Translations under genes and position numbers: made by a program | Assembly: GCA_964408055.1 (NCBI GenBank) | Contig: CAYOXV010000003.1 | Span: 1,437-42,566, forward strand | Length of the DNA stretch: 41,130 nucleotides | Direction of reading: 5' to 3' | DNA from: an uncultured Gammaproteobacteria bacterium | GTDB lineage: Bacteria > Patescibacteriota > Microgenomatia > UBA12405 | In this document: positions 3,428 to 37,032 of the stretch, piece by piece | Numbering within the stretch: the stretch's first letter is position 1 | Layout: each line of letters begins with the position of its first letter | The notes under the pieces: generated by a model | Databases searched by the model: none | Told to the model about the DNA's origin: nothing | The model's input: only the letters and a program-made list of their open reading frames with translations

Positions 3428-3433
3428 ATTATA
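3428..3433 (-). promoter_or_regulatory. -10 box (TATAAT) 6 nt upstream of the ATG of the 7TM gene; leaderless-type promoter
   Basis: The minus strand reads C-TATAAT-AGAAAT-ATG. No Shine-Dalgarno sequence is present. Confidence 0.5.
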
Positions 3434-3581
3434 GAAGAATTTAATTTAAATTATTTATTTTTTTAAATCTAATAAATTAAATAAATAATAATTTTACAGA
3501 CTAATTTGTGCCGTATTATAGCACTATTTTATTAATTTCTATCATTTTTTAAAGATAGTCACTTTTTTCTCCCATTTAAGG

Positions 3582-3587
3582 TATAAT
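3582..3587 (+). promoter_or_regulatory. -10 box (TATAAT) 7 nt upstream of the ATG of pilin paralog 1
   Basis: The sequence is gTATAATttgatcaATG, with no Shine-Dalgarno sequence. Confidence 0.5.
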
Positions 3588-3594
3588 TTGATCA

Positions 3595-3933
3595 ATGAAC
3601 AAATTATTAGCTGTCAACATTGGAGATGCCCTTTCCCTTGGTGATGGTGCCGGTAATATAGGCGATAAATATACTAGTGTTTCTCCTCTTGTTTCTTCCC
3701 TTTTAAAAAATTCCCTCGTTATTGCTGGTTTAATTTTTCTCTGTCTCTTAGTTTTTGGCGGTGTTATGTTTATTGCTAATGCTGGTAAAGGTGATGATAA
3801 AAAAGCCAGTCAATCAAAATCTGCCATTACTAGTGCCCTAATTGGTTTTGCTATTGTTTTTTCTGCCTATTTTATTATTCAAATTATTCAAGTTCTTACT
3901 GGTGTTCAGATTTTAAATTCTACGCTACAATAA
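3595..3933 (+). CDS. T4SS pilin-like small membrane protein (VirB2/TrbC-like), paralog 1
   Basis: The 112-aa ORF has two TM helices flanking the loop ANAGKGDDKK, followed by ITSALIGFAIVFSAYFII. All six neighbours share this architecture. Confidence 0.6.
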   Translation: MNKLLAVNIGDALSLGDGAGNIGDKYTSVSPLVSSLLKNSLVIAGLIFLCLLVFGGVMFIANAGKGDDKKASQSKSAITSALIGFAIVFSAYFIIQIIQVLTGVQILNSTLQ

Positions 3934-3937
3934 ACTT

Positions 3938-4261
3938 ATGTTAGGAATATTTGGAACTATTGAAAACCCTACTAATTACACTTCCAATAATGGATCAGGT
4001 CTTTTCACTCTCTTAAGTAATATCTTAAAATTAGCTGGAGTTATTGCCGGATTATTTTTTATTGTTCAAATTATTATGGCTGGCTATGGTTATATTTCTG
4101 CCAACGGTGATCCAAAAAAAACTGAAGCTGCTTGGGCTAAAATTTATCAAAGTGCTATTGGTTTAGCTATTGTTGCCAGCGCCTTTGTTCTAGCTTCAGT
4201 CATTGGTAAAGTCTTTGGTATCAATATTTTAAATCCAGTTATTTATGGACCAGGAACCTAA
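3938..4261 (+). CDS. T4SS pilin-like small membrane protein, paralog 2
   Basis: The 107-aa ORF has two TM helices, the loop SANGDPKKTEAAW and then SAIGLAIVASAFVLA. It starts 4 nt after paralog 1. Confidence 0.6.
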   Translation: MLGIFGTIENPTNYTSNNGSGLFTLLSNILKLAGVIAGLFFIVQIIMAGYGYISANGDPKKTEAAWAKIYQSAIGLAIVASAFVLASVIGKVFGINILNPVIYGPGT

Positions 4262-4264
4262 ATT

Positions 4265-4642
4265 ATGAATCAAATAACTAAATTATTAGCTGTAGCTAAA
4301 GTTACCTATGCCCCCTTAGAAGGACCAGGTATTCCTGTTAAAAGTCAAGATGGGGCTGGTGTTCAATTGGAAACTATTATTAGTACTGTTTTTGGTTTTT
4401 TAACTATAGTTGGAGTCATTTTCTTTACTCTTCAACTCATCTTTGCTGGTTATGGTTTTCTTTCTTCTCATGGTGAACCAGATAAACTCAAAATTGCTCG
4501 AACTAGATTAACTAATGGCATTCTAGGTCTTACCATTGTTGTTATTGCCTTTGGAGCTGGTGCTTTTATTGCTAATCTTCTCGGGATCCAATATATTTTT
4601 AATCTTAATGAATTTATCGGTTCAATTAAGTTAACTAATTAA
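4265..4642 (+). CDS. T4SS pilin-like small membrane protein, paralog 3
   Basis: The 125-aa ORF has the loop SSHGEPDKLK followed by GILGLTIVVIAFGAG, and an N-terminal KVTYAP motif. Confidence 0.6.
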   Translation: MNQITKLLAVAKVTYAPLEGPGIPVKSQDGAGVQLETIISTVFGFLTIVGVIFFTLQLIFAGYGFLSSHGEPDKLKIARTRLTNGILGLTIVVIAFGAGAFIANLLGIQYIFNLNEFIGSIKLTN

Positions 4643-4643
4643 T

Positions 4644-4994
4644 ATGGATTTCATTAAACCTATCTACGCTCAAATTATCAACCCAGCTCTTAAAGATTCT
4701 GAAAGCATTGTCGCTGATCCTAGTACTTATGTTAATAGTGTTATTCAATCTATTTTTAGTGTTTTCTTTATAGTTGCTGTCGTTTATTTTATTTGGCACT
4801 TTGTTATGGCTGCTTATCACATGATTTCTTCTCAAGGTGAACCTGATAAATGGAAAGCTGCTCAAAAGTCTATTCTTTATTCTCTAGTCGGTATTGTTTT
4901 GGTCTTTTCCATCTTTGCCATTCTTAAATTTGTTGGTATTGTTACTGGTGTTCAAGGGTTACAAAACCTTAAGTTAATTTGGCCATCACTTTAA
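4644..4994 (+). CDS. T4SS pilin-like small membrane protein, paralog 4
   Basis: The 116-aa ORF starts MDFIKPIYAQ and has the loop SSQGEPDKWK followed by SLVGIVLVFSIFAIL. Confidence 0.6.
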   Translation: MDFIKPIYAQIINPALKDSESIVADPSTYVNSVIQSIFSVFFIVAVVYFIWHFVMAAYHMISSQGEPDKWKAAQKSILYSLVGIVLVFSIFAILKFVGIVTGVQGLQNLKLIWPSL

Positions 4995-5051
4995 TATTTT
5001 ATTAATTACTGTTATCATCAATTAATTATCAATTAATCATTAATTAAAAAC

Positions 5052-5432
5052 ATGTTCAAAAACATAAAAAACAAAATTCAAATGTCAGCCATAGCCGCTC
5101 CAATTTACGCTGCTGATACCCTAAAACTTACTACTGAAGGTGGCAGCTTCAAAAATCTTGAAAATTTAACTGCTGGTGGTATTATTTCTGGAGCTATTAG
5201 CTTAGTTCTTATTATCGTTGCTTTAGTTTTCTTCTTCATTTTAGTCATGGGTGGTCTTCGATGGGTTACTTCTGGTGGAGATGAGAAAAAAGTTGGTGAA
5301 GCTCGTGCTCAAATTACCAATGCTTTAATCGGTTTAGCTATCGTCTTTGCTGCTTGGGCTATTATGAAACTTATTGGCACTGTCTTCGGTATTGATATCC
5401 TTGGAAATCTTACCATCCCTTCATTCCAATAA
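5052..5432 (+). CDS. T4SS pilin-like small membrane protein, paralog 5 (start could be the internal ATG at 5082)
   Basis: The 126-aa ORF has an AAPIYAAD motif and the loop TSGGDEKKVGEA followed by ALIGLAIVFAAWAIM. Confidence 0.6.
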   Translation: MFKNIKNKIQMSAIAAPIYAADTLKLTTEGGSFKNLENLTAGGIISGAISLVLIIVALVFFFILVMGGLRWVTSGGDEKKVGEARAQITNALIGLAIVFAAWAIMKLIGTVFGIDILGNLTIPSFQ

Positions 5433-5456
5433 ATTAAACAAATTAATTTAATTTTT

Positions 5457-5490
5457 AAACCCCCTGCGAGTTAATTCAAAGGGGGTTTTT
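5457..5490 (+). terminator. Rho-independent terminator after pilin paralog 5
   Basis: AAACCCCCT (5457-5465) pairs with AGGGGGTTT (5480-5488) across a 14-nt loop and is followed by a T-run. It is the only GC-rich hairpin plus T-tract seen in the window. Confidence 0.75.
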
Positions 5491-5494
5491 AGTG

Positions 5495-5500
5495 TATAAT
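5495..5500 (+). promoter_or_regulatory. -10 box (TATAAT) 6 nt upstream of the ATG at 5507 (pilin paralog 6)
   Basis: The sequence is gtgTATAATcatttt-ATG. It lies immediately after the terminator. Confidence 0.5.
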
Positions 5501-5506
5501 CATTTT

Positions 5507-5887
5507 ATGTCAAAACTGCTCAATTTTTTTATTCCTAAACCAGTTTTTGCTCAAACCCAAAAGTGGGAAATTATTAATTCTAAATGTGTTGGTACTGGTG
5601 AATTATCTGACGTCCCCACTATTAAAGGTTTTGAATGCCTTTTTTTTAACATTCTCCAAATAATTACCACTCTCGCCGGATTAATTTTTTTCTTTATGTT
5701 TATTATCGGTGGTTTTAAATATCTTACTTCTGGTGGTGACCCAAAAAAAACTGCCACTGCTTCTTCTACTTTAACTATGTCCATTATTGGTTTAGTTGGA
5801 GTTATTGTCTCCTGGTTAATTCTTCTCCTTATTAAAAACCTAACCGGAGTTGATGTTACCACCTTCACCATTCCATCCGGCAACTAA
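5507..5887 (+). CDS. T4SS pilin-like small membrane protein, paralog 6
   Basis: The track ORF begins at GTG 5492, but that codon lies inside the -10 box, so I call the ATG at 5507 (MSKLLNFFIPKPVFAQ...). The loop is TSGGDPKKTATA followed by SIIGLVGVIVSWLILLL. The stop overlaps the next ATG (TAATG). Confidence 0.6.
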   Translation: MSKLLNFFIPKPVFAQTQKWEIINSKCVGTGELSDVPTIKGFECLFFNILQIITTLAGLIFFFMFIIGGFKYLTSGGDPKKTATASSTLTMSIIGLVGVIVSWLILLLIKNLTGVDVTTFTIPSGN

Positions 5888-7491
5888 TGACCAAAAAAAT
5901 CCTTGTCCTTATCTTTTTTTTACTTATTCCTTTCAAAATTAATGCTTCTTTTGTTTATGCCCAAACACCTACTCCAGAGCCTGAAGAAGTCGAAGAAAAA
6001 AAAAGTGGTTGGGAACAGTTCTGGGATGATTTTTTAAATATAATTATCAATATCAATTCTAGTCTTAATTGGTTTATCCCTAAAAAAAATGTTCAAATAT
6101 CTTGTGAAAAACAGACAAACTTCACTGATTATAATGCCATTAACCAAAATTCCAATTCTCGAGCCCAAAGTAATTCATCTCAAAGATACCGTAAAGGTAC
6201 CTATCTTAAGGCTATTTTAGATGGTGCTTATGACGACGATACCATTGCTTATCTCTGTAATAATGTTTGTACTAATTCCAAAACTAGTGATGAAGGTTGT
6301 ATTGACATCAAATATTCCACTCTTGTCTATTATTTTTATCAAAAAGGTGAAAAAATCCTCTATGACAAATCTGATTCTAAAAAAACCATAGATTATGATT
6401 CCACTAAAATGGAATCCTATAATTACACTATTCCCCAAGGCACTGATTCCTATTTCAAAAATCTTTATAACAATATTTCTCAAATTCCTCAAGGAGCTTA
6501 CCAAGGTGAAGCTGACACTGCCGCTGGTTCCAGTAGTGAATTAAATGGAAGTCTTCGAACTTTTATCCCAGCTTCCGCTCAAACAGAGAAACCCCCTTCT
6601 GATATTACTAATACTGATAATGCAGAAAAGATGACCAAAGATAACGAATATCATCAACGAGCTCTTTACTCAAATTTTATTCCTGCTGAAAGTCAAAAAG
6701 TTTTAGGAACTACTACTGATTCACTTAATAATGGTCAAATTCTTGGTATCAGTACTGATACTGACACCCTAAAGAAAATTTTTAGTGATGACCTCCATCC
6801 CGCTTCTTGGCAAAATAATCAAGTTCTTATTGAAGAAAGCGATGAAGATGCTAAAAAAACCAGTCGTGGAATGAGCCAATATGGGGCTGTCGGTATGGCC
6901 TTATCTAATCTTGGATACGAACAAATTCTTAAAAATTATTATGGTGATATTAAAATTGTTGATATTAAAGATTATGTTTCCAACCCAAACAATATCACTA
7001 TTAATGTCCACACTCGCAGCAATGATTCTATTTCCGATAAAACAATTTCTCTTAATCTAGAAAAATATCTTAAAGGAATTGATGAAATTCAAGATTACAT
7101 TGGTAAAAAAAACGGTGGTATGAATATGCTCAAAGCCCAAGCTATTGTTTCTCGAACCTATGCTTTTGTTCGCACTGATGGTTTCAAAAATACAATCAAA
7201 GCTACCCATGCCGACCAACTTTTCACTTACAAAAAAATAGGGAAATTACCTTATCTTAGCCAAGCTGTCGACGAAACTAGTGGAAAAATTATTGTCGATA
7301 GCACAACCAATCAACCATTTGAAACAGAATTCAAATCTAAATTCTGTGGGCCCTCTCTTTCTTATCAACCAAGCAGTATTTCTGGCCGTAGTAGTAATCA
7401 CACCAACCCCTCATACACTTCAAGTCGATCTTATGAAGATATCGCCTACCAGAAACTTTACGATAAAAGTATTGATTCCACTTGTAATTAA
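5887..7491 (+). CDS. Secreted SpoIID/LytB-like peptidoglycan-remodelling protein with a long unassigned N-terminal region
   Basis: The 534-aa ORF has a signal peptide (MTKKILVLIFFLLIPFKINASFVYA|Q). Its C-terminal half carries the SpoIID motifs SRGMSQYGAVGMA...ILKNYYGD, LKAQAIVSRTYAF, HADQLFTY and SGKIIVDSTTNQPFETEF. Confidence 0.6.
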   Translation: MTKKILVLIFFLLIPFKINASFVYAQTPTPEPEEVEEKKSGWEQFWDDFLNIIININSSLNWFIPKKNVQISCEKQTNFTDYNAINQNSNSRAQSNSSQRYRKGTYLKAILDGAYDDDTIAYLCNNVCTNSKTSDEGCIDIKYSTLVYYFYQKGEKILYDKSDSKKTIDYDSTKMESYNYTIPQGTDSYFKNLYNNISQIPQGAYQGEADTAAGSSSELNGSLRTFIPASAQTEKPPSDITNTDNAEKMTKDNEYHQRALYSNFIPAESQKVLGTTTDSLNNGQILGISTDTDTLKKIFSDDLHPASWQNNQVLIEESDEDAKKTSRGMSQYGAVGMALSNLGYEQILKNYYGDIKIVDIKDYVSNPNNITINVHTRSNDSISDKTISLNLEKYLKGIDEIQDYIGKKNGGMNMLKAQAIVSRTYAFVRTDGFKNTIKATHADQLFTYKKIGKLPYLSQAVDETSGKIIVDSTTNQPFETEFKSKFCGPSLSYQPSSISGRSSNHTNPSYTSSRSYEDIAYQKLYDKSIDSTCN

Positions 7492-7515
7492 CAACAAATA
7501 AATTTAAACTAAAAT

Positions 7516-9165
7516 ATGAAATTAAAAATTAGAAATATTATCAATCGTCTCAATCGTCGTGATCTCACCCCAACCCTAAAAATCCCCAAATTTTTTAAAT
7601 TTACCCTTATCCTAATAATAATTGTTTCTACTTTCTTTTTAGTCAAAAACAATTTCACTAAAGCCGAAGAAGTTTCAATTTATACTGAACAAGGAATTGA
7701 AAATCATCCTGTCCTAACAGAACAAAATAACCGTGAGAATGGAAATAATTTATCAAGCTGGACCAATTCTTCATTAGCTGCCAATGCCGGTGCTGGGTTG
7801 GAAGCCACTTCTGGAAAATTTGAAACAGATAAATTAGGTAAAATTAGCTGGGTTCCCGGAGGAATGATTGGTCAAACCACAAAATATATTGGTTATCTCT
7901 ACAATGCTCCTGCTTCCGGTACCCTTTATATTGCTGACAATGTCAACAATTTCATTGGTAAACCTGCCTATGCTCAAAGTGGAATTGGCTATACTGGGTT
8001 ACAACCACTTCTCCCAATTTGGAAAATTTTTAGAGACATTATTTATATAATAATCTCTCTTGTTTTTGTGGTTATTGGACTTTTAATTATGCTTCGAGTC
8101 AAGATTAGTCCCCAAGCTGTTATCACTATCCAAAGTGCTATTCCAAAACTAATCAGCTCTCTTATCTTAGTTACTTTTTCTTATGCCATTGCTGGTCTAC
8201 TTATTGATTTAAGTTATGTTCTCCCAGGTCTAATCATTACCCTCTTCCTAAAATCACCTGCTATTAATGCTATTTATCAAGCCATGCTCTCTAACCAAAT
8301 TGAAGCTCTTAAATTATTTTTTACCAATCTCACAGATATCAATGCTACTGTTCTTAATAATGACTTTTTAAACGGTGCTATAAATCCAAATCCCTATATT
8401 CTTTTCGCTTATGTTGGTCAAATGGCCCCAATGGCAAATGTTATGGGAGTGTTAGTTTTACTTGGGCTTGCCCTAACCCCTACAATGGGAATAAGCGTCA
8501 TTCTTGGTGTCGTTGCTGCTATTCTTGCTCCTTTAATTCTTTCTATCATGATTCTAATTTGGATGATTAAGTTCTTTGTTGGTTTACTTAAGTGTTATTT
8601 CAATGTTATTTTAAAAATTATTTTAGCTCCTTTAGAAATTGGCTTAGGCGCTATCCCAAATATGAAATTAGGTTTTGGTAGTTGGTTTATCGGACTAGTC
8701 GCTAACCTTATTGTTTTCCCAGCCTGCACTCTCTTTATATTATTAGTTGTTATTGTTGTCCATACTATTCCTAATTTAGGTCTTTGGGCTCCAGATTTAA
8801 TTCAACTTACAGATGCTAGTTTTATTGCCAAAACTTGTATTGGCCTTGGAGCTCTTATGCTTCTCCCTAAACTTCCAAAATTAATTCCAGAAGCTATCTT
8901 CCAACTCAAACCATCACCATTTGGTACTGCTATTGGTGAAAGTGCTAAACCACTTGGTAATTTTGGTAAAGGTATTGGTAATACGGTTGTTAGTGGTGCC
9001 CGTGGAGGAATTGGTGATGCTATTGGAAACAGAGTTGCAGGAAGCAACTCTAGATTAGGTAATTGGATTTCTGGTGGTAGACCTCCAGTAGGTGGTGGTA
9101 ATCCTCCAGCAGGTGGTGGTAATCCTCCAGCAGGTGGTGGTAATCCTGGCCCTCATACTCCTTAA
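7516..9165 (+). CDS. VirB6/TrbL-like polytopic T4SS membrane protein with a Gly/Pro repeat tail
   Basis: The 549-aa ORF has an N-terminal anchor, a ~130-aa exposed segment, then many TM helices. The C-terminal tail is glycine-rich and ends GGGNPPAGGGNPPAGGGNPGPHTP. The gene sits directly after the pilin and wall-enzyme genes. Confidence 0.5.
   Translation: MKLKIRNIINRLNRRDLTPTLKIPKFFKFTLILIIIVSTFFLVKNNFTKAEEVSIYTEQGIENHPVLTEQNNRENGNNLSSWTNSSLAANAGAGLEATSGKFETDKLGKISWVPGGMIGQTTKYIGYLYNAPASGTLYIADNVNNFIGKPAYAQSGIGYTGLQPLLPIWKIFRDIIYIIISLVFVVIGLLIMLRVKISPQAVITIQSAIPKLISSLILVTFSYAIAGLLIDLSYVLPGLIITLFLKSPAINAIYQAMLSNQIEALKLFFTNLTDINATVLNNDFLNGAINPNPYILFAYVGQMAPMANVMGVLVLLGLALTPTMGISVILGVVAAILAPLILSIMILIWMIKFFVGLLKCYFNVILKIILAPLEIGLGAIPNMKLGFGSWFIGLVANLIVFPACTLFILLVVIVVHTIPNLGLWAPDLIQLTDASFIAKTCIGLGALMLLPKLPKLIPEAIFQLKPSPFGTAIGESAKPLGNFGKGIGNTVVSGARGGIGDAIGNRVAGSNSRLGNWISGGRPPVGGGNPPAGGGNPPAGGGNPGPHTP
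9073..9150 (+). repeat. Tandem 21-bp coding repeat (GGTGGTGGTAATCCTCCAGCA; two full copies, plus a truncated 18-nt third copy and a degenerate leading copy)
   Basis: Copies at 9091-9111 and 9112-9132 are identical. A partial copy lies at 9133-9150 and a degenerate copy at 9073-9090. Together they encode the GGGNPPA repeats. Confidence 0.85.
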
Positions 9166-11628: not shown

Positions 11629-11637
11629 ATTATACCA
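11629..11637 (-). promoter_or_regulatory. Extended -10 box (TGgTATAAT) 8 nt upstream of the ATG of the 778-aa gene
   Basis: The minus strand reads TGGTATAAT-TTGGGCAT-ATG. The box lies in the 23-nt gap after ftsH. Confidence 0.5.
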
Positions 11638-13623: not shown

Positions 13624-13629
13624 ATTATA
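13624..13629 (-). promoter_or_regulatory. -10 box (TATAAT) 6 nt upstream of the ftsH ATG
   Basis: The minus strand reads TATAAT-GTGAGG-ATG. Confidence 0.5.
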
Positions 13630-13653
13630 CCATTCAAGCCAATCTCTCCAAAC

Positions 13654-13662
13654 TGTTAAAAT
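13654..13662 (+). promoter_or_regulatory. Extended -10 box (TGtTAAAAT) 8 nt upstream of ATG 13671
   Basis: The sequence is TGTTAAAAT-aaattaat-ATG. Confidence 0.45.
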
Positions 13663-13670: not shown

Positions 13671-14441
13671 ATGTCTGAAACCAAAAACGAAATTCCACAA
13701 GTCATTCAAGAAATTACCCAAGATCAAATCAGACAACAAAATCAAGAAACAACTTTAAAAATTCTAAACCAAAACTCTGAAATCAAAAAAATGATAAATA
13801 CTATTTCTGAAAACCATCAATTAAATAATTTTGAAGATAAAAGTAATATTCCTATTCCTTTTTCATTAATTGAAAGAAACAAAACTGATATTTTTCTTCA
13901 ATCACAAATCGTCACCGAATACCAAAAATTAGTTAAACAAATTAACTCTCCAAAATTAGCTTTTGAATATCCTTTTATCTTAGTCGGTCATCAACAAACA
14001 GATCCAGATGGTTATCAATATATTGTTTTTAATGAGTTGGTTCACACTCAAAAAGACGCCACCATTTTAGAAAAAAATGAAGTCGAACACGATCCAAACA
14101 AAATCAGACAAGCTTTAAAAAAAGGTGACGTTATTGCTCTTGGACATACTCACCCATATCTAACTGACAAAGAAACTTCCAATTATTTTACTAACAAAAT
14201 TAACCCCGATATTAAAGATGAATATCATATAAAAAGAATCGGTTTAAATCTATCTCTCCAAGATATTTACAACGGTATTCAACTTAAAAGAGGATTACCA
14301 AACAAAAATGTTTATTCCTGTTTAATTATGTACAATGGCGAAATTGGATTAATCGATCACAACCAAAATAGTATAACTAAGGCAAATAATATTATTGGTG
14401 TTACTGAAAAAGAAATAATAAACATTCCCTCACCTAATTAA
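13671..14441 (+). CDS. Hypothetical protein, possible divergent JAB/MPN-like metalloenzyme
   Basis: The 256-aa ORF contains, in order, FEYPFILVG, VIALGHTHPY and NLSLQDI. This resembles the E...HxH...SxxD JAMM signature, but with a long insertion between HxH and SxxD. Confidence 0.3.
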   Translation: MSETKNEIPQVIQEITQDQIRQQNQETTLKILNQNSEIKKMINTISENHQLNNFEDKSNIPIPFSLIERNKTDIFLQSQIVTEYQKLVKQINSPKLAFEYPFILVGHQQTDPDGYQYIVFNELVHTQKDATILEKNEVEHDPNKIRQALKKGDVIALGHTHPYLTDKETSNYFTNKINPDIKDEYHIKRIGLNLSLQDIYNGIQLKRGLPNKNVYSCLIMYNGEIGLIDHNQNSITKANNIIGVTEKEIINIPSPN

Positions 14442-17710: not shown

Positions 17711-17716
17711 ATTTTA
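17711..17716 (-). promoter_or_regulatory. -10 box (TAAAAT) 6 nt upstream of the ATG of the DUF4012 gene
   Basis: The minus strand reads TAAAAT-TGAAAT-ATG. Confidence 0.45.
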
Positions 17717-19250: not shown

Positions 19251-19276
19251 GATTTATTCTACCTTGATTATTAAAT

Positions 19277-20530
19277 TTAAATTACCCCTATTACTAAAAC
19301 TAACAACCACATGTTCTGTGGTAGTGTTAGCCAATAATGGTCCATCATCCCACTTAAAACTATTACTCCAATAATTAATAAATCTTCCTTTGTCCATTTC
19401 TTAACTTTCCACCAACCAAATAATAACCAAGTTATTATTCCTAATCCTAATATTCCTATCTCCGAGATTAATAGTAATAAAATATTATGTACTGGTTGCA
19501 ACCAAAAAATCTGATTATTTTTTTGAAATTCTGGTAAGTTAATTAAGAAGTTTTTCATTCCTACTCCAAAAAGAGGGGATTCTTTAATCATATGTAAAGC
19601 AGCTAAATTTAATTGTCCTCGCTTCAATAGACCATTTTCATCCCATCCACTTAAAAATCCTCCAATTGGATAATTGAAATTAATTATTTTGAATACTAAA
19701 AATAATAAAATTAATATCAATATTCCACTCTTCCATCTATTTTTTATTTCTTTAAAACTCTTTCCCAAAAACCAAATTAAAACCACTAAAGTCATTGCCC
19801 AAATAGTTCTACTTCCAGTCAAAATTATCCCCACTAAACCCAACCAAGCCACCATCCACCAATAAATATTTTTTTTAATAATTTCTGTCTTTAATGGTTT
19901 AAATTTTATCCACCAAATCAAAGCTACTAATAAAAATCCAGCTAAACTATTAGGATGAGAAAAAGTTCCATAAGCTCTTATCAAACCACTTCCAGCCACT
20001 GACATCTGAGCTATCCCAATTGTATTAAAATCAAAACTTCTTTCCCCTAACCACCACCATATTCCGTTTAAACTTCCACCCTTAGAAATTTGTCCTATTG
20101 CCAAAATACTTTCCAAGATTATCCAAAGGGGTATAACTTTAATCAAAAGATCCTTAACTATTTTTTTATTTTTATTTAAAAACCAAATCATCCACCCCAT
20201 TTCAAATATTCTCAACCAACCCATTCCTGCCACCCATTTATTTGTTGCTAATAAAATATTTATTAAAACAAAAACCACTATCCCAATTCTTTTCAAGTTA
20301 AACCATTTTTTTACTTGATAAACTTTATTACTTGATAAACTTTCAACTATAAATAAACCCAACCAAATCAAATCAATCAAATATAAAGTAGGGGAAAGAT
20401 AGTCTATTTTAATTCCTAAAACCAAACTCCAATCAAACCAAAAATGTTTTCCCAATTGAGTTGGTATTAAAAGTAAAAATAAAAACAACAATATTTTAGA
20501 TAATTTCCCCAAATATCCTTTCACCACCAA
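19277..20530 (-). CDS. O-antigen ligase/polymerase-like (Wzy_C family) membrane protein; start codon uncertain (the track start is TTG)
   Basis: The 417-aa polytopic ORF contains RAYGTFSHPNSLAGFLLVAL, characteristic of the O-antigen ligase family. Confidence 0.55.
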   Translation of the reverse strand: MVVKGYLGKLSKILLFLFLLLIPTQLGKHFWFDWSLVLGIKIDYLSPTLYLIDLIWLGLFIVESLSSNKVYQVKKWFNLKRIGIVVFVLINILLATNKWVAGMGWLRIFEMGWMIWFLNKNKKIVKDLLIKVIPLWIILESILAIGQISKGGSLNGIWWWLGERSFDFNTIGIAQMSVAGSGLIRAYGTFSHPNSLAGFLLVALIWWIKFKPLKTEIIKKNIYWWMVAWLGLVGIILTGSRTIWAMTLVVLIWFLGKSFKEIKNRWKSGILILILLFLVFKIINFNYPIGGFLSGWDENGLLKRGQLNLAALHMIKESPLFGVGMKNFLINLPEFQKNNQIFWLQPVHNILLLLISEIGILGLGIITWLLFGWWKVKKWTKEDLLIIGVIVLSGMMDHYWLTLPQNMWLLVLVIGVI

Positions 20531-21049: not shown

Positions 21050-21058
21050 ATTTTAGCA
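21050..21058 (-). promoter_or_regulatory. Extended -10 box (TGcTAAAAT) 7 nt upstream of the jag ATG
   Basis: The minus strand reads TGCTAAAAT-AGCGACT-ATG. Confidence 0.45.
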
Positions 21059-21086: not shown

Positions 21087-21872
21087 TTATTTCTTATTTA
21101 CTTTATTTACCACTAATTGTTGAGCAATCATTAAAGCTGAAGTTGTAAACCAATAGAGGAGTAACCCTAGTGAAAAATTCCAACCAATAAAAATTGTCAT
21201 AAATGGCATTAAATACATTGATTGAGTTCTCATTGCTCCCATCATGTCATCTTCTTTATCTTTAGTTGATTTAACTACCACTTGATCAGCTTTAGGATTT
21301 GGCATCATCAACTTAGCACTAAAAAATTGCAAAACTCCTGATCCTAATAATAGAAATACTGGTAAAATCCAATTTAGACTAGCTCCTTGAGAAAAAAGAT
21401 TAGCTGGAGTTAAAGCTAAGTCTCCACCTAAAAAACTTAAATCAAATTTAAAACTTTCATCTACTCTAAAACTGCTTATCAAATTAGTATTAATCTTTCC
21501 CATATCTCCCTTACCTTGAGCAAACATAGTCACCATATTAAAAGCTGAAAAGAAAATTAACAACACTGCTATTTGCAATATTTGAGGTAAACAACCAGAA
21601 AGGGGATTTACTCCTTCTTGTTTATATAGTTCCATTTGAGCTTTAGCCATTGCCTGTTTATCACTGCCATATTTTTCCTTAAGTTTTTTTAATTTTGGTT
21701 GCAATTCTCTAATTTTTGAAGCTGATTTTAAACTTGGCCAAACCAAAGGTAACAAAACTAATCTAATTAAAATTGTCACCACAATGATGGCAATTCCAAA
21801 ATTACCAAACAAATAGTAGAAACCAAATAAGGCGTTAATAAATGGGGCAATAAATAAATTCATATTGATCAT
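21087..21872 (-). CDS. yidC: Membrane protein insertase YidC (short, monoderm type)
   Basis: Matching segments are LPLVWPSLKSASKIRELQPKLKKLKEKYG, NPLSGCLPQILQIAVLLIFF and PFMTIFIGWNFSLGLLLYWFTTSALMIAQQ. I place the start at ATG 21872, which forms an ATGA overlap with the yidD stop. The track start at 21911 would overlap yidD by 43 nt. Confidence 0.9.
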   Translation of the reverse strand: MINMNLFIAPFINALFGFYYLFGNFGIAIIVVTILIRLVLLPLVWPSLKSASKIRELQPKLKKLKEKYGSDKQAMAKAQMELYKQEGVNPLSGCLPQILQIAVLLIFFSAFNMVTMFAQGKGDMGKINTNLISSFRVDESFKFDLSFLGGDLALTPANLFSQGASLNWILPVFLLLGSGVLQFFSAKLMMPNPKADQVVVKSTKDKEDDMMGAMRTQSMYLMPFMTIFIGWNFSLGLLLYWFTTSALMIAQQLVVNKVNKK

Positions 21873-22072
21873 TTTAACAAATCTATTCCCTTTCCACCAC
21901 CTGGGTGACATCTTAAAACCCTCTTAAAACCTAAAAATAATCCCTTAATTACTCCATATTTTTCTACTGCTTCATAGGTATATTCCGAACAAGTTGGTAC
22001 AAACCGGCAATGTTCACCTTTAGAAATATATTTTTTATAAAACACCAATATTTTTAAAACTATTTTTTTCAT
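21869..22072 (-). CDS. yidD: Membrane protein insertion efficiency factor YidD
   Basis: The 67-aa ORF contains CRFVPTCSEYTYEAVEKYGVIKG. An ATGA overlap links it to the rnpA stop. Confidence 0.9.
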   Translation of the reverse strand: MKKIVLKILVFYKKYISKGEHCRFVPTCSEYTYEAVEKYGVIKGLFLGFKRVLRCHPGGGKGIDLLK

Positions 22073-22395: not shown

Positions 22396-22408
22396 AATCT
22401 ATTGTACC

Positions 22409-22553: not shown

Positions 22554-22562
22554 ATTTTACCA
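22554..22562 (-). promoter_or_regulatory. Extended -10 box (TGgTAAAAT) 7 nt upstream of the rpmH ATG
   Basis: The minus strand reads TGGTAAAAT-TCCAGCT-ATG. Confidence 0.5.
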
Positions 22563-22673: not shown

Positions 22674-22742
22674 ATCAAATCAACCCCCGACATTGACTTC
22701 CAATTTCTGCCTAAAATTAGTTATTTTTAGAATTTTAATCTT

Positions 22743-24086: not shown

Positions 24087-24379
24087 TTTTTATAAAATTG
24101 TCCACATTTTTAAATCACTTATCCACTATTTTATCCACACTTTAAAAATTATTTTCCCCCGAAGATTAACCCCAACCAAGTCAATTTTATAAGATAAAAA
24201 ATCAACTTTTATCCTTAAAATAAACCAAAAAATCCCTTTCCACTATTAATTAATACAAAAAAACATCTAAAGATCGTCAATTTTATTATTTATTCCACTT
24301 ATTAACCAACTCTAATAAGAACTAATACTAATTTATTATTAATCTTTTAATAAACCAAATTTTTTGATAATATAAGACA
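24087..24379. other. Probable oriC: DnaA-box cluster plus AT-rich unwinding region between dnaA and dnaN
   Basis: The boxes are TTGTCCACA (24098-24106), TTATCCACT (24119-24127) and TTATCCACA (24131-24139). Weaker TTTCCACT/TTATTCCAC-like sites lie further on. The stretch toward 24379 is very AT-rich. Confidence 0.7.
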
Positions 24380-28946: not shown

Positions 28947-28952
28947 CAATAA

Positions 28953-28958
28953 ATTATA
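28953..28958 (-). promoter_or_regulatory. -10 box (TATAAT) 6 nt upstream of ATG 28946
   Basis: The minus strand reads GGATATAAT-TTATTG-ATG. Confidence 0.45.
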
Positions 28959-28976
28959 TCCTAAATCAATTCTCTT

Positions 28977-31331: not shown

Positions 31332-31333
31332 TT

Positions 31334-32035
31334 TTATTTTGTATTAACTACTGGGGTATTAAAATCTAAATTTTGTAATTTTTGATTACCTTCTATTTCT
31401 TCATTATATATTCTATAAAAAAGCTCCATTAATTCCTGATTTCCTAGCGATTTTATATCCAACCCTAATCTTGAAAATAATCTCACTAAATGGTCTCTTT
31501 TGGGTTCCAAGTTTGCTTTTGCTTTTTCTATAATATATTCCTTTGGATAAGGTAGTTGTTCATTACTATTAGGTAGATTTAAAATTGTTTTTAGAGATTG
31601 TTTTCCTCCTCCCTTTATTCCTAATTCTAAACTAGAAAACTTTACCACTACATAAAAAGTTTTTGATAAAACATCATTCTTTTTAACTGTCTCTTCTACA
31701 AATTTTCGGTAGAATTTTATTCTTTCTTTAAGTAAAGGATTATTTTGTTTACTTTCTGCTCCTGTTAAGTTTTTAAGATAAGAAGTAATGTCTTTTACAT
31801 TAGATCTAATTACAATTTGGATAGGAAAATTAAGCGAGTTTAATATCCCTCCATAGGCTGCCACTAAGGCAGATTGTTCTGGCTCTGACAAAAGGTCAAA
31901 ATTTACTGATGATATTTGCATTATCGAAACACAAGAACCATCTTTCAATAACACTATTCCATCAACCACATCCTCAATTGGCAAATGTTCTTGAGTACTT
32001 CCTTTTATTGCAATTTTAATAGGATCGATTGGCAT
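31334..32035 (-). CDS. Hypothetical T4SS protein resembling a stand-alone VirB4 N-terminal domain
   Basis: The 233-aa ORF reads HLPIEDVVDGIVLLKDGSCVSIMQISSVNFDLLSEPEQSALVAAYGGILNSLNFPIQIVIRS. This follows the pattern seen at the N-terminus of monoderm VirB4/TrsE-type ATPases, but no P-loop is present. The ORF ends 2 nt before virB4. Confidence 0.35.
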   Translation of the reverse strand: MPIDPIKIAIKGSTQEHLPIEDVVDGIVLLKDGSCVSIMQISSVNFDLLSEPEQSALVAAYGGILNSLNFPIQIVIRSNVKDITSYLKNLTGAESKQNNPLLKERIKFYRKFVEETVKKNDVLSKTFYVVVKFSSLELGIKGGGKQSLKTILNLPNSNEQLPYPKEYIIEKAKANLEPKRDHLVRLFSRLGLDIKSLGNQELMELFYRIYNEEIEGNQKLQNLDFNTPVVNTK

Positions 32036-32049
32036 ATATTTATAATATC

Positions 32050-32979
32050 CTAATTGTGAGCAATTATTTTAATTGGTTCTACTATTTGACCATTTAAATC
32101 TAAATTGACTCTATCAAAAATATAACCGGTTTTTTCAGCAATTATTAAATATCTACCATTAGCTAATGGGGTTGATATTTTAAATTGTCCCAGTGAGTTA
32201 GTTTTTAATACCCTTGAAGGGTTTCCATGTTCATCTTGAATTTCTACAATCACCCCGTCAACTATCTTTCCTTCATTACTTGTCGCCATTCCCACTATTA
32301 CATTAGCTACTTCTGGAATATCTGGCATCGGGATTGTTCCAAAAAGGACTTTCCCTGTTGCTTCTAATTTTTCTGATTTTAATCCCAAATTAGCTTGTTC
32401 ATCTCGCCAATTAGCTGTTTTTACTTCCTTATCTTCTTTTGTTGGACTAACTACCACTTCTGTTTTTTTTATTTCACCTTTATTTAAATTAGTGGCTACT
32501 TTTTCTAATTCTGTTGTTGGCCCTACCACCTTTTTTTTATTTCCATGTAATCTATCTTTTAATGATGTTGTTTGGAAAAAATCGTTAAAATTTCTATGTT
32601 CTTTATTTTCTTTTTCTTCATCTACTTTTTTTATTACTGTCTTAGTTGAAGTAATTACCTTAGTTGCATCCAAATCTAACCAATTTTTATTACCATTTTT
32701 TTTATAAGTATAAATTGTTGGTCTATAAATAGATTTAATAAAAGACATTATCCAGTTTTCTAAGGGTCTGTCTTCAAAGGGGACAAAAGCTAGCAATAAT
32801 CCGCCTCCACCCAAAACCACCATCAATGGCCATTTAACTATAATTATTAATTTTGTTGCATTTATTAACAAAGCTAAAATAATTCCCACCGCTGCCTTCA
32901 AAAATTGCTTCAAAGTCATCTCTCCCACTAATTTAAATTCGTAGGATGATATTTGCTGTGGAATTGCATGTTGTTCCAT
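32050..32979 (-). CDS. PrgI/VirB3-like membrane protein fused to a C-terminal carboxypeptidase-regulatory-like (prealbumin-fold) domain
   Basis: The N-terminus, IPQQISSYEFKLVGEMTLKQFLKAAVGIILALLI plus a second TM helix, matches the PrgI-family pattern. The C-terminus is VDGVIVEIQDEHGNPSRVLKTNSLGQFKISTPLANGRYLIIAEKTGYIF. Confidence 0.5.
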   Translation of the reverse strand: MEQHAIPQQISSYEFKLVGEMTLKQFLKAAVGIILALLINATKLIIIVKWPLMVVLGGGGLLLAFVPFEDRPLENWIMSFIKSIYRPTIYTYKKNGNKNWLDLDATKVITSTKTVIKKVDEEKENKEHRNFNDFFQTTSLKDRLHGNKKKVVGPTTELEKVATNLNKGEIKKTEVVVSPTKEDKEVKTANWRDEQANLGLKSEKLEATGKVLFGTIPMPDIPEVANVIVGMATSNEGKIVDGVIVEIQDEHGNPSRVLKTNSLGQFKISTPLANGRYLIIAEKTGYIFDRVNLDLNGQIVEPIKIIAHN

Positions 32980-32985
32980 TATTTA

Positions 32986-32994
32986 ATTCTATCA
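32986..32994 (-). promoter_or_regulatory. Extended -10 box (TGaTAGAAT) 6 nt upstream of ATG 32979 (start of T4SS block B)
   Basis: The minus strand reads TGATAGAAT-TAAATA-ATG. Confidence 0.5.
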
Positions 32995-33080
32995 GCAAAC
33001 AGGTCAATTTTTAAATTAAATCCACTTCATTAAAGTAAAGATGTTATCAAGCTCTAAAGGGTTTTTTGATAAACTACGTC

Positions 33081-33971
33081 ATGTCTAAACTTTTAGTTGT
33101 TGATGGTCATGCTGTTATCCATCGGGCTTACCACTCTATTCCAGAATTGACCCTAAATGGTCAACCAGTCAATGCTATCTATGGTTTTTACTCTATGCTT
33201 TTATCTGCTATCTCTCAACTCAATCCTAAATATCTCATAGTTTGTCTTGATTCTCCTGGCCCAACCTTTAGACAATCAGAGTTTGTTGGTTATCGAGCCA
33301 AAAGAAAAGTCCCAGATCATAGTCTTATTTCCCAACTCCCACTTTTAAAATCAACCTTAGAAGAGTCTGGCATTAAAACCTTTTCCATGGGTGGTTATGA
33401 AGCTGATGATCTTATTGCTACTGTCGTCAAAAAAGCTTCTAAAAAAAACTTTATTGATGAGATAGTAATTATCACTGGTGATAAAGATTTAATGCAATTA
33501 ATCGATAGTAAAACATCTTTACTCATGCCTCTTCGAGGTCTCTCTGAAACAAAAATATTTGAGCCAGAGGATGTTGTTGAAAAATTAGGTGTCAAACCAT
33601 CCCAAGTTGTTGATCTAAAAGCTTTAATGGGGGATATGTCCGATAGTTATCCCGGTGTTGCTGGTATCGGTCCAAAAGTTGCTACTGATCTTCTTACTGA
33701 GTATCAAAATTTAGACAATATTTACCAAAATTTAGATAACATCAAACCAACTATCAAAGAAAAATTGGTTAGGGAAAAAGAAAACGCCTATCTTTCCCAA
33801 AAATTAGCTACTCTAATTGACAATATCCCCATTAAATTTAAAATGTCCCAAGCCCGTTGGAATCAAAATATTATTTCTGGCTTAAACACTCTTTTTAAGA
33901 ATTATAATTTCAAATCTCTTATTAATCGTCTTGATCAACCAGCCAAACCGAAACAAAATAGTTTATTTTAA
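33081..33971 (+). CDS. Stand-alone 5'-3' exonuclease / flap endonuclease (Pol I N-terminal domain type)
   Basis: Matching segments are LLVVDGHAVIHRAYH, YEADDLIAT, ITGDKDLMQL and the H3TH motif DSYPGVAGIGPKVATDLL. No polymerase domain follows. I place the start at ATG 33081; the track start is TTG 33066. Confidence 0.85.
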   Translation: MSKLLVVDGHAVIHRAYHSIPELTLNGQPVNAIYGFYSMLLSAISQLNPKYLIVCLDSPGPTFRQSEFVGYRAKRKVPDHSLISQLPLLKSTLEESGIKTFSMGGYEADDLIATVVKKASKKNFIDEIVIITGDKDLMQLIDSKTSLLMPLRGLSETKIFEPEDVVEKLGVKPSQVVDLKALMGDMSDSYPGVAGIGPKVATDLLTEYQNLDNIYQNLDNIKPTIKEKLVREKENAYLSQKLATLIDNIPIKFKMSQARWNQNIISGLNTLFKNYNFKSLINRLDQPAKPKQNSLF

Positions 33972-33977
33972 AAGAAT

Positions 33978-35108
33978 ATGTCAAAAAAACTTAAAATAGC
34001 TCTAGTTCAAGATTATCTTAAAGAATTCGGTGGGGCTGAAGCTGTTTTTGAAACTCTCTCTGACATCTTCCCCAATGCCCCAATTTACACTTCCCTTTAT
34101 AAACCAGAATTTTTAGGTCCTCATCAATCTCGTCTCCAAAAAAAATGGGATCATCGTATCCATCAAAGTTTTTTTGCATTTATTCCCTTTGCTCATAAAC
34201 TTATCAGCCCACTTCGACTTCTTTCTCCTCTAGCTTTTAAATCTTTTGATTTTTCTAAATTTGATCTAATTATTACTTCAGCCACTGGTGCCTATTTCCC
34301 TAATTCTCTAAACAAAAAATCAGCCAAACTTATTTGTTATTGTCATACTCCTCCTCGTTATCTTTATGGTCTTCCTACTGCTAGAAACTTTACTAAAAAT
34401 AAAATAATTAGAACCATTGTTGCTTTTACTAATCATTTTCTTCGCCTTAGAGATTTTCGTTTTTCTCAAAATGTCGATCAATATATTGCTAATTCCAAAA
34501 CTACTGCCGCTCGTATTCAAAAATTCTATCGTCGTGATGCCATTGTTATTAACCCACCCATAGATCTCCCAAATAAAAATTCCCAAGATTTAATTTCTAA
34601 TAATTCTAAATCAGATTATTTTCTCACTGGTGGCCGTCTCGCCCGTGCCAAACGTTTTGATATTGCCATTAAAGCTTGTAATCAACTCGGGCTTAAACTA
34701 AAAATATTTGGTCGTGATTTTTCTGGAGTTTCTGATGAATTAAAACAACTTGCTGGCCCTACTATTGAGTTTTTAGGTGAAGTTGATAATGACACTAGAT
34801 CCCTACTTTATCAAAATGCCAAAGCTTTTATTTTCTCCGCTGACCAAGAAGATTTTGGTATGGTTCCAGTTGAGTCTATGAGTTATGGTTGCCCAGTTAT
34901 TGCTTACAAAAGTGGGGGAGTTACTGAAACTGTCATTGATGGTAAAACTGGTGTCTTTTTCAATAATTTAACTAGTAAATCCTGTGCCAATGCTATTAAA
35001 AAATTTCAAAAATTAAAAATAAAACCATCCGATTGTATCTCTCGTGCCTCTGAATTTTCCAAAGAAAAATTTATTTCCAAGATTAAAAAACTAGTTTTAT
35101 CTGTTTAA
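33978..35108 (+). CDS. Glycosyltransferase family 4 (GT-B fold)
   Basis: The C-terminal signature is EDFGMVPVESMSYGCPVIAYKSGGVTETVIDGKTGVFF. Confidence 0.8.
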   Translation: MSKKLKIALVQDYLKEFGGAEAVFETLSDIFPNAPIYTSLYKPEFLGPHQSRLQKKWDHRIHQSFFAFIPFAHKLISPLRLLSPLAFKSFDFSKFDLIITSATGAYFPNSLNKKSAKLICYCHTPPRYLYGLPTARNFTKNKIIRTIVAFTNHFLRLRDFRFSQNVDQYIANSKTTAARIQKFYRRDAIVINPPIDLPNKNSQDLISNNSKSDYFLTGGRLARAKRFDIAIKACNQLGLKLKIFGRDFSGVSDELKQLAGPTIEFLGEVDNDTRSLLYQNAKAFIFSADQEDFGMVPVESMSYGCPVIAYKSGGVTETVIDGKTGVFFNNLTSKSCANAIKKFQKLKIKPSDCISRASEFSKEKFISKIKKLVLSV

Positions 35109-36035
35109 CCATTTTTCTGCATCCAAAGCTGCTCGACAACCTTCTCCCGCTGCTACCACTGCTTGTTTATGTTTTACATTGACACAGTCTCCAGCTGCAA
35201 AAACCCCACCAATATTAGTCATGGTTACAAATTCACTATTTTTACCTACTATTACTTGTCCTGTCTCATTTAAATCCACTAATCCCTTTAAAAATTCTGT
35301 TGCTGGACTACTTCCAATTGCCACAAACAACCCATCTAATGGTAATATTTTATCGGTGTTAGTTTTATTATTAAACACTTTAACCGATTCCAATTTTTCT
35401 TGACCGATTATTTCTTTTATTTCACTATTCCACCATATTTCTATCTTCTGGTTATTTAAAACTTTCTTCTGTTCCACCATTGAAGCTCTAAATTCTTCTC
35501 GTCTATGGATTAAATAAACTTTTTTACAAAACTTTGATAAAAATTCAGCTTCTTCACAAGCTGTATCTCCACCGCCAACTACTGCTACTGTTTTATCTCT
35601 AAAAAACATTCCATCACAAGTTGCACAACCACTAATTCCATGACCAATCAACTCTTTTTCTTTTGGTAACCCCAACCATTTAACCGCTGCTCCAGTTGCC
35701 ACTATTACTGATTTTGCTTCCAAAATCTGTCCATCAATTAATTCAACTTTAAAAATTTCTTCTTTATCAATTTTTTTTACTATTCCTGATTTTATTTCCA
35801 CTCCTAAATTTTTCACCTGTTGTTGCATATCCATCATTAATTTGACTCCGCCTGTTCCATTTGGGAATCCTGGCCAATTATCAACTGTGGTAGTAATTGT
35901 TAGTTGTCCTCCTGGTTGGTTACCAGCAATCACAATTGTTTTTAAATCTGCTCGAGAGTTATAAATTGCTGCTGTTAAACCTGCTGGGCCTGATCCAATT
36001 ATCAAAGTGTCAAAAATCTGATTATTTTCATTCAT
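35097..36035 (-). CDS. trxB: Thioredoxin-disulfide reductase
   Basis: It has the FAD motif IIGSGPAGLTAA, the redox-active CATCDG, the NADPH motif VVGGGDTACEEA and the C-terminal GVFAAGDC. Confidence 0.93.
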   Translation of the reverse strand: MNENNQIFDTLIIGSGPAGLTAAIYNSRADLKTIVIAGNQPGGQLTITTTVDNWPGFPNGTGGVKLMMDMQQQVKNLGVEIKSGIVKKIDKEEIFKVELIDGQILEAKSVIVATGAAVKWLGLPKEKELIGHGISGCATCDGMFFRDKTVAVVGGGDTACEEAEFLSKFCKKVYLIHRREEFRASMVEQKKVLNNQKIEIWWNSEIKEIIGQEKLESVKVFNNKTNTDKILPLDGLFVAIGSSPATEFLKGLVDLNETGQVIVGKNSEFVTMTNIGGVFAAGDCVNVKHKQAVVAAGEGCRAALDAEKWLNR

Positions 36036-36041
36036 GAGACT

Positions 36042-36050
36042 ATTTTATCA
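36042..36050 (-). promoter_or_regulatory. Extended -10 box (TGaTAAAAT) 6 nt upstream of the trxB ATG
   Basis: The minus strand reads TGATAAAAT-AGTCTC-ATG. Confidence 0.5.
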
Positions 36051-36103
36051 TTCAATTCGGCTTTACTTTTTGGTTATTTTCCTCGATACTTAAACTTGAT
36101 AAC

Positions 36104-37024
36104 ATGCTCAAAAAAACTCACTTAACTATTATCTTCATTTTTAAAATCATTAAAAATAAACGTCGGTTTTTATTTTGGCTTTTTATTAGATTTCTATCAG
36201 CCTTACTTCCTCTTTTAAGTATTTACCTTTTTTCTTTAGCCATTAAAAATCTTGAAACTAATGCCGTTTTTACTTCTGTTTTCTTTCTCATGATCTTAAT
36301 TTTATTAGTCAAAGTTGTTGACAATTTTACTCGACTTAAATCAGTCTTTAAATTAGACGAATGTATTAGTGATATTGGTTTTGACGCTCATAATTATTTT
36401 AATAAAGATCTTAAAACTGAGACCAAAGAAGAACGTCATAAAATAGTTCAAGCTATTCGTAATTTTGCTGATGCCAGTTGTATTACTCTTAAACTCTTTT
36501 GCCAACCTGGGATGGATAGTGTTGTTTCTCTTATTGCCATTCCTACTATTTTATTTATTGTTGATTTCAAAATTTTTGTTCTAGAGGTAGCTTATATCTT
36601 AATTTATATGATTTTTGATTATTACACTACTCAAAAATATGTCAAGTTCAGAGACATTCAAAATACAAAAATAGAAAGTTATTATGCTAAATTTCAAGAG
36701 TCAAATGATATTGATTTAGAACAAAAAACTTTTACTCGTCATTTTACCCGTCTCTCTAATTGGAATTTTATTGAATGGTTTCTTCTTCAAAATACCGCTG
36801 TTTTCTTTTACACTCTTATTTTTGCCTACTCTATAATTGCTGTTCTAAGTGGTCAAAAACAAATTTCTGATGTTGTCTTAATTATGGGCTATGCTGCTTC
36901 TAGTCAAACATTTTTAAATTCATTTTCTGAAATTAAAGATAGTTTAACTGATGTCACTGTTGCCATTGATCATCTTGCTAAAAACAAACATATCTCCGCT
37001 GTCGATCTTGATGATTTGGTTTAA
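36104..37024 (+). CDS. Polytopic membrane protein, resembles an ABC-exporter transmembrane domain without an ATPase domain
   Basis: The 306-aa ORF has about 6 TM helices. Its N-terminal layout (KNKRRFLFWLFIRFLSALLPLLSIYLFSLAIK) is reminiscent of type I ABC exporter TMDs. No Walker motifs are present. Confidence 0.3.
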   Translation: MLKKTHLTIIFIFKIIKNKRRFLFWLFIRFLSALLPLLSIYLFSLAIKNLETNAVFTSVFFLMILILLVKVVDNFTRLKSVFKLDECISDIGFDAHNYFNKDLKTETKEERHKIVQAIRNFADASCITLKLFCQPGMDSVVSLIAIPTILFIVDFKIFVLEVAYILIYMIFDYYTTQKYVKFRDIQNTKIESYYAKFQESNDIDLEQKTFTRHFTRLSNWNFIEWFLLQNTAVFFYTLIFAYSIIAVLSGQKQISDVVLIMGYAASSQTFLNSFSEIKDSLTDVTVAIDHLAKNKHISAVDLDDLV

Positions 37025-37026
37025 GT

Positions 37027-37032
37027 TATAAT
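37027..37032 (+). promoter_or_regulatory. -10 box (TATAAT) 5 nt upstream of the mutM ATG
   Basis: The sequence is gtTATAATactttATG. Confidence 0.4.

Follow-up and report, generated by a model that had tools for sequence, protein, structure and literature searches.

The TATAAT-like hexamers that lie directly before start codons across the window, a stretch of 41,130 nucleotides (nt) comprising positions 1437 to 42566 of contig C3 in assembly G000, are very probably -10 elements read by the RpoD-type sigma factor and placed for leaderless transcripts, an arrangement that would be a genome-wide trait applying to about 40-50% of operon-first genes. The assembly amounts to 596 kb in 44 contigs, with a guanine plus cytosine (GC) content of 31% and an estimated completeness of 89%. 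The nearest relatives of its DnaN protein are metagenome-assembled genomes, the majority of them labelled Candidatus Shapirobacteria, a Patescibacteria lineage of the Microgenomates type, and the organism is a Candidatus Shapirobacteria bacterium from a Microgenomates-type class of the Patescibacteria, in the candidate phyla radiation. A preliminary description of the window had listed 15 genes in which such a hexamer ends 5-8 nt before the ATG, had noted a TGn extension in seven of them, and had read the pattern as leaderless or otherwise Shine-Dalgarno (SD)-independent initiation by default. All 15 hexamers are exact in coordinates, strand and gap, the seven extensions are real and ftsH adds an eighth (TGGTATAAT), while a comparable box 5-9 nt before the start is found in eight or more other genes (rnpA, dnaA, yidC and the genes at 20524, 32035, 33081, 36104 and 39968) of this stretch.

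Genome-wide counts are based on 622 genes, called by a greedy longest-open-reading-frame (ORF) procedure and then grouped by their upstream neighbour into divergent genes (144), spaced genes (134; same strand, separated by 40 nt or more) and close same-strand genes (293). Translation table 11 fits the genome, with ORFs of at least 150 amino acids (aa) covering 86% of it, and an alternative genetic code was rejected. A strict box was defined as a hexamer with T1, A2 and T6 fixed and at least five of six matches to TATAAT, at a gap of 5-9 nt to the start codon; weaker boxes, such as the TAATAT of dnaN or TAAACT, were left out of the strict counts. The strict box precedes 54 of 144 divergent genes (37%), 39 of 134 spaced genes (29%) and 61 of 293 close same-strand genes (21%), compared with 5-9% of decoy windows taken from the same upstream regions (Fisher p = 5e-17, 7e-14 and 2e-15, respectively). 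Boxes are therefore commoner before starts than in the AT-rich background, the comparison by which the preliminary description had proposed that its claim be judged. An unbiased hexamer count over positions -18 to -4 of the 278 operon-first genes ranked TATAAT first (39 versus 6.5 expected, p = 2.5e-10) and TAAAAT second (38 versus 9, p = 4.7e-8), and the modal gap from box to start is 6 nt. When any candidate start within the first 30 codons is allowed, a strict box is found in 203 of the 622 genes, against 51-88 at decoy offsets; by the same rule the divergent class reaches 70 of 144, against ~12% by decoy, and the spaced class 44 of 134. A fair estimate from these counts would place a leaderless-type box on roughly 40-50% of operon-first genes. 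The word "default" was thus justified for a large share of transcription units and somewhat overstated for the other half, which lacks the box.

In-frame TAA and TAG stops can mimic TAnnnT, and the pattern might on that account be an artefact of AT-rich composition combined with start calling. TAnnnT also peaks at gap 0, gaps 0 and 6 both being in frame with the start, and 20-30% of decoy windows contain a loose match, as such an artefact would predict. Because TAA stops lying in frame before longest-ORF starts can produce this mimicry, a test independent of start calls was run over the whole genome, in which 61 of 211 TGnTAnAAT sites were followed at gaps of 5-9 nt by an ATG opening an ORF of at least 60 aa. 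The expected number was 4.75 (Poisson p ~1e-45), and other gaps yielded about one site each. The reversed pattern gave 8 hits in the genome against 62 for the true pattern, and in Escherichia coli K-12 (4.6 Mb) the numbers were 12 versus 23, with no enrichment. Moreover, TATAAT at gap 6 contains no in-frame stop, yet it is the most enriched hexamer; the TG extension is itself enriched, the decoy gaps are low, and the box is kept in relatives, as described below. The artefact is refuted by the test free of start calls, the controls, the conservation and the E. coli null result, and its probability is close to nil.

The aligned boxes have the character of sigma-70 promoters of the extended -10 type. 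G occupies the position 2 nt before the box in 61% of cases (background ~15%) and T the position before that in 58%, although neither position was used in the selection, and a T-rich stretch precedes this TG. The genome encodes one RpoD-type ORF (Sigma70_r3, 96.5 bits) that carries the segment IPVHMVETINK in region 2.4/3.0. The His and Glu at the equivalent sites of the E. coli sigma factor contact the TG of the extended -10 element. ATG (61) and GTG (7) are enriched as the start codons that follow the extended box, but TTG is not. RNA polymerases prefer a purine at the transcription start, and this enrichment of ATG and GTG is thus what would be expected if transcription started on the first base of the codon. 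The usual distance between the -10 hexamer and the start point of sigma-70 promoters is 6 nt, equal to the modal gap observed here, which would place +1 on the A of the ATG. A T at position -1, considered as a further mark of the start point, was dropped, as it is equally present before internal genes. The proposal that the mRNAs begin at or near the A of the ATG is consistent with the extended -10 features and their placement; the underlying observation is real and robust, and the interpretation appears largely right, resting on start points and 5' ends inferred from sequence.

Several points weigh against this interpretation. Loose TAnnnT matches are frequent in a genome so rich in AT, at 20-30% per 5-nt window, and crude longest-ORF gene calls underlie the class counts. 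The -35 element is barely detectable, the enrichment of TTGACA-like hexamers at 17-20 nt being marginal. Both the box and an SD sequence are missing from about half of the operon-first genes, so that a second SD-independent route must exist. Finally, the box stands before 21% of close same-strand genes, which a translation signal would predict as well. The hexamer could accordingly serve translation, as an A/T-rich, non-SD signal within leadered mRNAs of the Bacteroidia kind (group B of GeneMarkS-2), with the true promoters lying further upstream. The enrichment before close same-strand genes (61/293 versus ~5%), the A-rich upstream context and T at -1 shared by all gene classes, and the disuse of SD sequences despite an anti-SD, as in Bacteroidia (PMC7797042), speak for such a signal. 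On the other side, the consensus is precisely that of a sigma-70 extended -10 element with TG at the right offset, and not just A-rich. Among genes that overlap their upstream neighbour the box is present in 9 of 106 (8.5%, approximately background), rising to 16 of 32 (50%) for spacers of 11-20 nt and 18 of 47 (38%) for those of 21-39 nt; it tracks spacer length and therefore appears where the space just suffices for a -10 element. Divergent pairs have a median intergenic distance of 74 nt, with 29 of 72 separated by no more than 60 nt, leaving no space for leaders, and the enrichment of purine start codons, but not TTG, after the box likewise counts against a translation signal. A translation signal in place of promoters is consequently quite improbable, and the placement of RpoD -10 elements at start codons accounts better for the data.

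For two genes of the window the start codon is anchored without recourse to the promoter argument. The Fpg protein (MutM) must begin with Met-Pro-Glu-Leu, and the family profile of DnaN aligns from residue 1; the boxes end 5 and 6 nt, respectively, before these ATGs, and there is thus no space for a ribosome-binding site. Before dnaN, a TAnnnT box at a gap of 4-10 nt is retained in 56 of 65 relatives, down to ~58% protein identity, with the box itself varying (TGATAATAT, TATAAT, TGTTAATAT or TGATAAACT) and the flanks diverging. In distant Patescibacteria (~40% identity) dnaN has GGAGG-like sites in place of the box. The ftsH gene displays TGnTAtAAT, six bases and then ATG in two genomes of the same genus and in one genome of another family. 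Across the class (61 genomes, 41 families) the pattern TGNTANAAT-N5-8-ATG occurs 3160 times, whereas the reversed control yields 543 hits and a decoy at gaps of 15-18 nt yields 848; at least three-fold enrichment is observed in 54 of the 61 genomes. Other Patescibacteria classes (143 genomes) give 4751 versus 1283, with at least three-fold enrichment in 90 genomes and none in some families. As the class and phylum genomes are interrelated, these counts are descriptive and do not constitute independent tests.

The 16S rRNA is complete and ends with CACCUCCUUU (...GGAUCACCUCCUUU), so that the anti-SD, which the preliminary description had suggested should be sought at this 3' end, is present and intact; its loss is therefore not what makes initiation SD-independent. 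Even so, no enrichment of SD cores at SD spacing was seen genome-wide, GGAGG occurring 52 times at gaps of 4-10 nt, 68 times at 14-20 nt and 40 times at 24-30 nt before starts. Positional profiles are flat in all gene classes except for a bump of a few percent, and 23 genes are preceded by a stretch of 7 nt or more that pairs perfectly with the 16S tail, against 5 in mock windows. When GGAGG-N4-10-ATG was used as a survey of SD use in the phylum, coding sequence gave a high background, and the pattern served only to provide the ratio of ~1 for this genome. The preliminary statement that SD sequences are lacking holds for first and internal genes of the window and for 97% of the genome, and has to be qualified by the ~3% of genes with a strong SD. 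Among the close same-strand genes (293), overlap with the upstream gene occurs in 106 (by 4 nt in 33 and by 1 nt in 10), and a further 108 follow it within 10 nt. These internal genes have neither box nor SD and display an A-rich context at positions -5 to -3 (56-64% A) with T at -1; their arrangement suggests that they are likely to be expressed by coupled translation or re-initiation.

The longest complementarity to the 16S tail in the genome belongs to rpsU (G000:C8:19578-19599; L082 1469-1491), where AAGGAGGTG (9 nt) sits 11 nt before the ATG behind a leader. All 30 rpsU loci examined in the class have such an extended SD, which reads (A)AGGAGGTG or GGGGGTG and is separated from the start by T-rich sequence; in other Patescibacteria classes ~20 of 26 loci have it. 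The tuf gene (G000:C6:23910-25079) displays an AAGGAG-type SD, shorter than that of rpsU, in a ~70-nt leader behind a TACAAT box, and this SD recurs in 16 of 29 genomes of the class. AAGGAG-type sequences were also identified before leadered orphan genes of higher GC content (0.40-0.43) at C9:3301, C10:1032, C19:3709 and C14:5826 of G000. Complementarity in tuf and several of the orphans extends over 5-8 nt, beside the 9 nt of rpsU.

In Bacteroidia, ribosomes are blind to SD sequences and rpsU is autoregulated through an extended SD (PMC7797042, PMC9976891, PMC13000453). An SD-blind ribosome of this type is characterised by a 16S 3' tail that sits in a pocket formed by bS21, bS18 and bS6. The rpsU SD observed here recalls this autoregulation, and the analogy is a lead rather than a finding. 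Ribosomes of the present organism might similarly be SD-blind through a sequestered 16S 3' tail, with the anti-SD kept mainly for a loop controlling rpsU, which encodes bS21; such a mechanism would add to leaderless initiation and not replace it. The unmatched length of the rpsU complementarity, its recurrence within and beyond the class, and the Bacteroidia precedent (PMC9976891, PMC13000453) are in keeping with this idea. However, the ordinary SD of tuf, at ordinary spacing both here and in the 16 class genomes, together with those of several GC-richer orphans, suggests that SD sequences are usable by these ribosomes, and it is for this reason that the rpsU parallel is treated as a lead. In addition, conservation of the residues contacting the 3' tail is reported to be unique to Bacteroidia (PMC9976891). 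SD-blindness is hence regarded as unlikely. Loss of bS1 was also considered as a correlate. This ribosomal protein was not detected in the 89%-complete assembly, but both same-genus genomes encode a four-domain bS1 of ~380 aa, and bS1 was found in three others; the correlate was dropped, the absence being most likely an assembly gap.

What has been established is the motif together with its placement, statistical support and conservation, as well as the lack of SD sequences; from this, transcription starts and the mode of translation may be inferred as follows. Most boxes would be of the extended -10 type, a T-rich stretch followed by TGnTAnAAT, with little or no -35 element, and would be read by the single RpoD-type sigma factor. 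As 5-9 nt, mostly 6 nt, separate the end of the hexamer from the start codon, transcription would begin at the A of the AUG or no more than 1-3 nt from it, and an mRNA of this kind, having no space for an SD, would be translated as a leaderless message. Many genes located 11-39 nt behind a same-strand neighbour seem to have a small promoter of their own, while those that overlap the upstream gene or follow it within 10 nt would probably depend on coupling or re-initiation in an A-rich -3 to -5 context. The minority of genes with an SD (rpsU, tuf and some GC-richer orphans) would be a reasonable cause for retention of the anti-SD in 16S rRNA. A more speculative extension, to which we attach only a small probability, is that leaderless first genes and SD-less internal genes are ancestral and phylum-wide in Patescibacteria, and that the anti-SD is kept chiefly for a small SD regulon headed by the rpsU (bS21) autoregulatory loop, either convergent or shared with Bacteroidia.

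The architecture is of a known kind in a new lineage. In group C of GeneMarkS-2, which includes Actinobacteria and Deinococcus-Thermus, the first genes of operons have a Pribnow box at a distance of 6-8 nt, and 25-50% of transcripts are predicted to be leaderless (Lomsadze et al. 2018, PMC6028130), an architecture anticipated by Zheng et al. 2011 (PMC3160421). The Candidatus Shapirobacteria genome resembles this group in its TANNNT box ~6-8 nt before first genes, in a share within the same 25-50% range and in the absence of the box from overlapping internal genes. Group C genomes using code 11 are reported to be almost all of high GC content (bioRxiv 10.1101/2022.07.25.500264), in contrast with the 31% GC observed here. 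Also in contrast with group C, where internal and leadered genes use SD sequences, the internal genes of this genome are SD-less, strong SDs amounting to ~3% overall, and its promoters are mainly of the extended -10 (TGn) type. The low GC content and the SD-less internal genes are what is unusual. Leaderless transcripts have been verified by differential RNA sequencing (dRNA-seq) in Deinococcus deserti (PMC4007540) and Mycobacterium (PMC4633059). The likeness to these organisms lies in a -10 box that immediately precedes AUG or GUG and in the many mRNAs whose 5' end coincides with the start codon; the evidence there comprises dRNA-seq and proteomics, whereas 5' ends in the present genome are predicted from sequence.

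Similarities with Bacteroidia comprise the retained anti-SD, the absence of SD sequences from nearly all genes, the prominent extended SD of rpsU and the A-rich context upstream of starts. Bacteroidia mRNAs are leadered, which contrasts with the roughly half of the transcription units that look leaderless here and with the ordinary SD of tuf and some orphans. Within the same phylum, a Parcubacteria subgroup without anti-SD was described by Tsurumaki et al. 2022 (PMC9297842); departure from SD-led initiation is common to both, but the full ...GGAUCACCUCCUUU 3' end distinguishes the present organism. In the literature that could be searched, no paper connects leaderless genes to Patescibacteria or to the candidate phyla radiation. 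A large uncultured radiation appears mostly leaderless or SD-independent while keeping its anti-SD, which bears on how translation initiation evolves when genomes shrink and on the purpose for which the anti-SD is retained; the conserved long SD of rpsU offers a concrete, testable lead. In practical terms, gene callers tuned to SD sequences misplace starts in such genomes, as happened for ftsH, and the distance rule from box to ATG is a cheap means of correcting starts and delimiting transcription units in thousands of uncultured Patescibacteria genomes.

Along the window, Pfam matches agree with the names given in the preliminary description for FtsH, Jag/KhpB, DnaN, a TrxB-like reductase, Fpg/MutM, DUF4012, a Polysacc_synt flippase, 7TM_transglut and a PrgI-like protein; the JAB-like gene starting at ATG 13671 had no match in Pfam. 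On the reverse strand, TATAAT precedes the 7TM_transglut gene (3428..3433; ATG 3421, gap 6) and the 976-aa gene (28953..28958; ATG 28946, gap 6), TAAAAT the DUF4012 gene (17711..17716; ATG 17704, gap 6) and TAGAAT the flippase gene (19256..19261; ATG 19250, gap 5). Extended boxes on this strand comprise TGGTATAAT before the 778-aa gene (11629..11637; ATG 11620, gap 8), placed in the 23-nt spacer behind ftsH, the same TGGTATAAT before ftsH itself (13624..13632; ATG 13617, gap 6), TGCTAAAAT before jag/khpB, whose product has R3H and KH domains (21050..21058; ATG 21042, gap 7), TGGTAAAAT before rpmH (22554..22562; gap 7 to the ATG of MGKQTYQP...), TGATAGAAT before the PrgI-like gene (32986..32994; ATG 32979, gap 6) and TGATAAAAT before the trxB-like gene (36042..36050; ATG 36035, gap 6). 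The forward strand displays TATAAT before pilin-like gene 1 (3582..3587; ATG 3595, gap 7), pilin-like gene 6 (5495..5500; ATG 5507, gap 6) and mutM/fpg (37027..37032; ATG 37038, gap 5), TGTTAAAAT before the JAB-like 256-aa gene (13654..13662; ATG 13671, gap 8), which is divergent from ftsH, and TGATAATAT before dnaN (24365..24373; ATG 24380, gap 6). The 778-aa, flippase, 976-aa and mutM genes lie 13-27 nt behind a same-strand gene and, by distance, are not operon-first.

The eight additional genes include two on the reverse strand, namely yidC with TGTTAAAAT (21871..21879; gap 7 to ATG 21863, the probable start) and rnpA with TACAAT in the context aggTACAAT (22401..22406), with a gap of 5 nt to GTG 22395 or of 8 nt to TTG 22392. 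On the forward strand they comprise dnaA with TAGAAT (22728..22733; ATG 22743, gap 9), the gene at 33081 with TGATAAACT (33067..33075; ATG 33081, gap 5), the gene at 36104 with TAAACT (36091..36096; gap 7), which is divergent from trxB, and the gene at 39968 with TGATAAAAT (39954..39962; ATG 39968, gap 5). The gene at 20524 has TGGTAAGAT before a GTG, and the gene at 32035 has TATTAT.

These positions bear on start assignment. Of the three start corrections proposed in the preliminary description, that of ftsH is borne out by its relatives, which keep the ATG and TGnTATAAT at gap 6 and not the upstream GTG; those of pilin 6, where the alternative GTG 5492 overlaps the box, and of the 976-aa gene are plausible. 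The box before the gene at 33081 probably implies ATG 33081 and not TTG 33066, and the yidC start is probably misplaced in the ORF calls as well. The ATGs of ftsH and its divergent neighbour at 13671 are 53 nt apart, with two back-to-back extended -10 boxes each positioned in the -35 region of the other. Upstream of pilin 6 (5460-5507), a hairpin with a T-run (AAACCCCCTGCGAGTTAATTCAAAGGGGGTTTTT) can be discerned by eye at ~5460-5490, immediately ahead of the TATAAT box, although the terminator scan did not list the hairpin; if it is real, the terminator, promoter and start codon of pilin 6 would all be contained within 59 nt.

One gene of the window departs from this arrangement. The gene for an Rrf2-cysteine desulfurase fusion is preceded on the forward strand by TTGACG-17-TATAAT (37898..37926), located 32 nt before ATG 37959, and is thus leadered, without an SD. 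This near-consensus promoter was flagged by a generic promoter scan; over the window as a whole that scan found fewer -35/-10 matches than in shuffled sequences and no excess of terminators, AT-rich DNA making it uninformative. The leader contains a 10-pair palindrome (37928-37954) that looks like an autoregulated operator. Outside the window, the 16S rRNA gene (L001 1501-3003; G000:C4:41013-42515) is longer than the Rfam model by an insertion of ~39 nt close to the 5' end, a type of feature frequent in rRNAs of the candidate phyla radiation.

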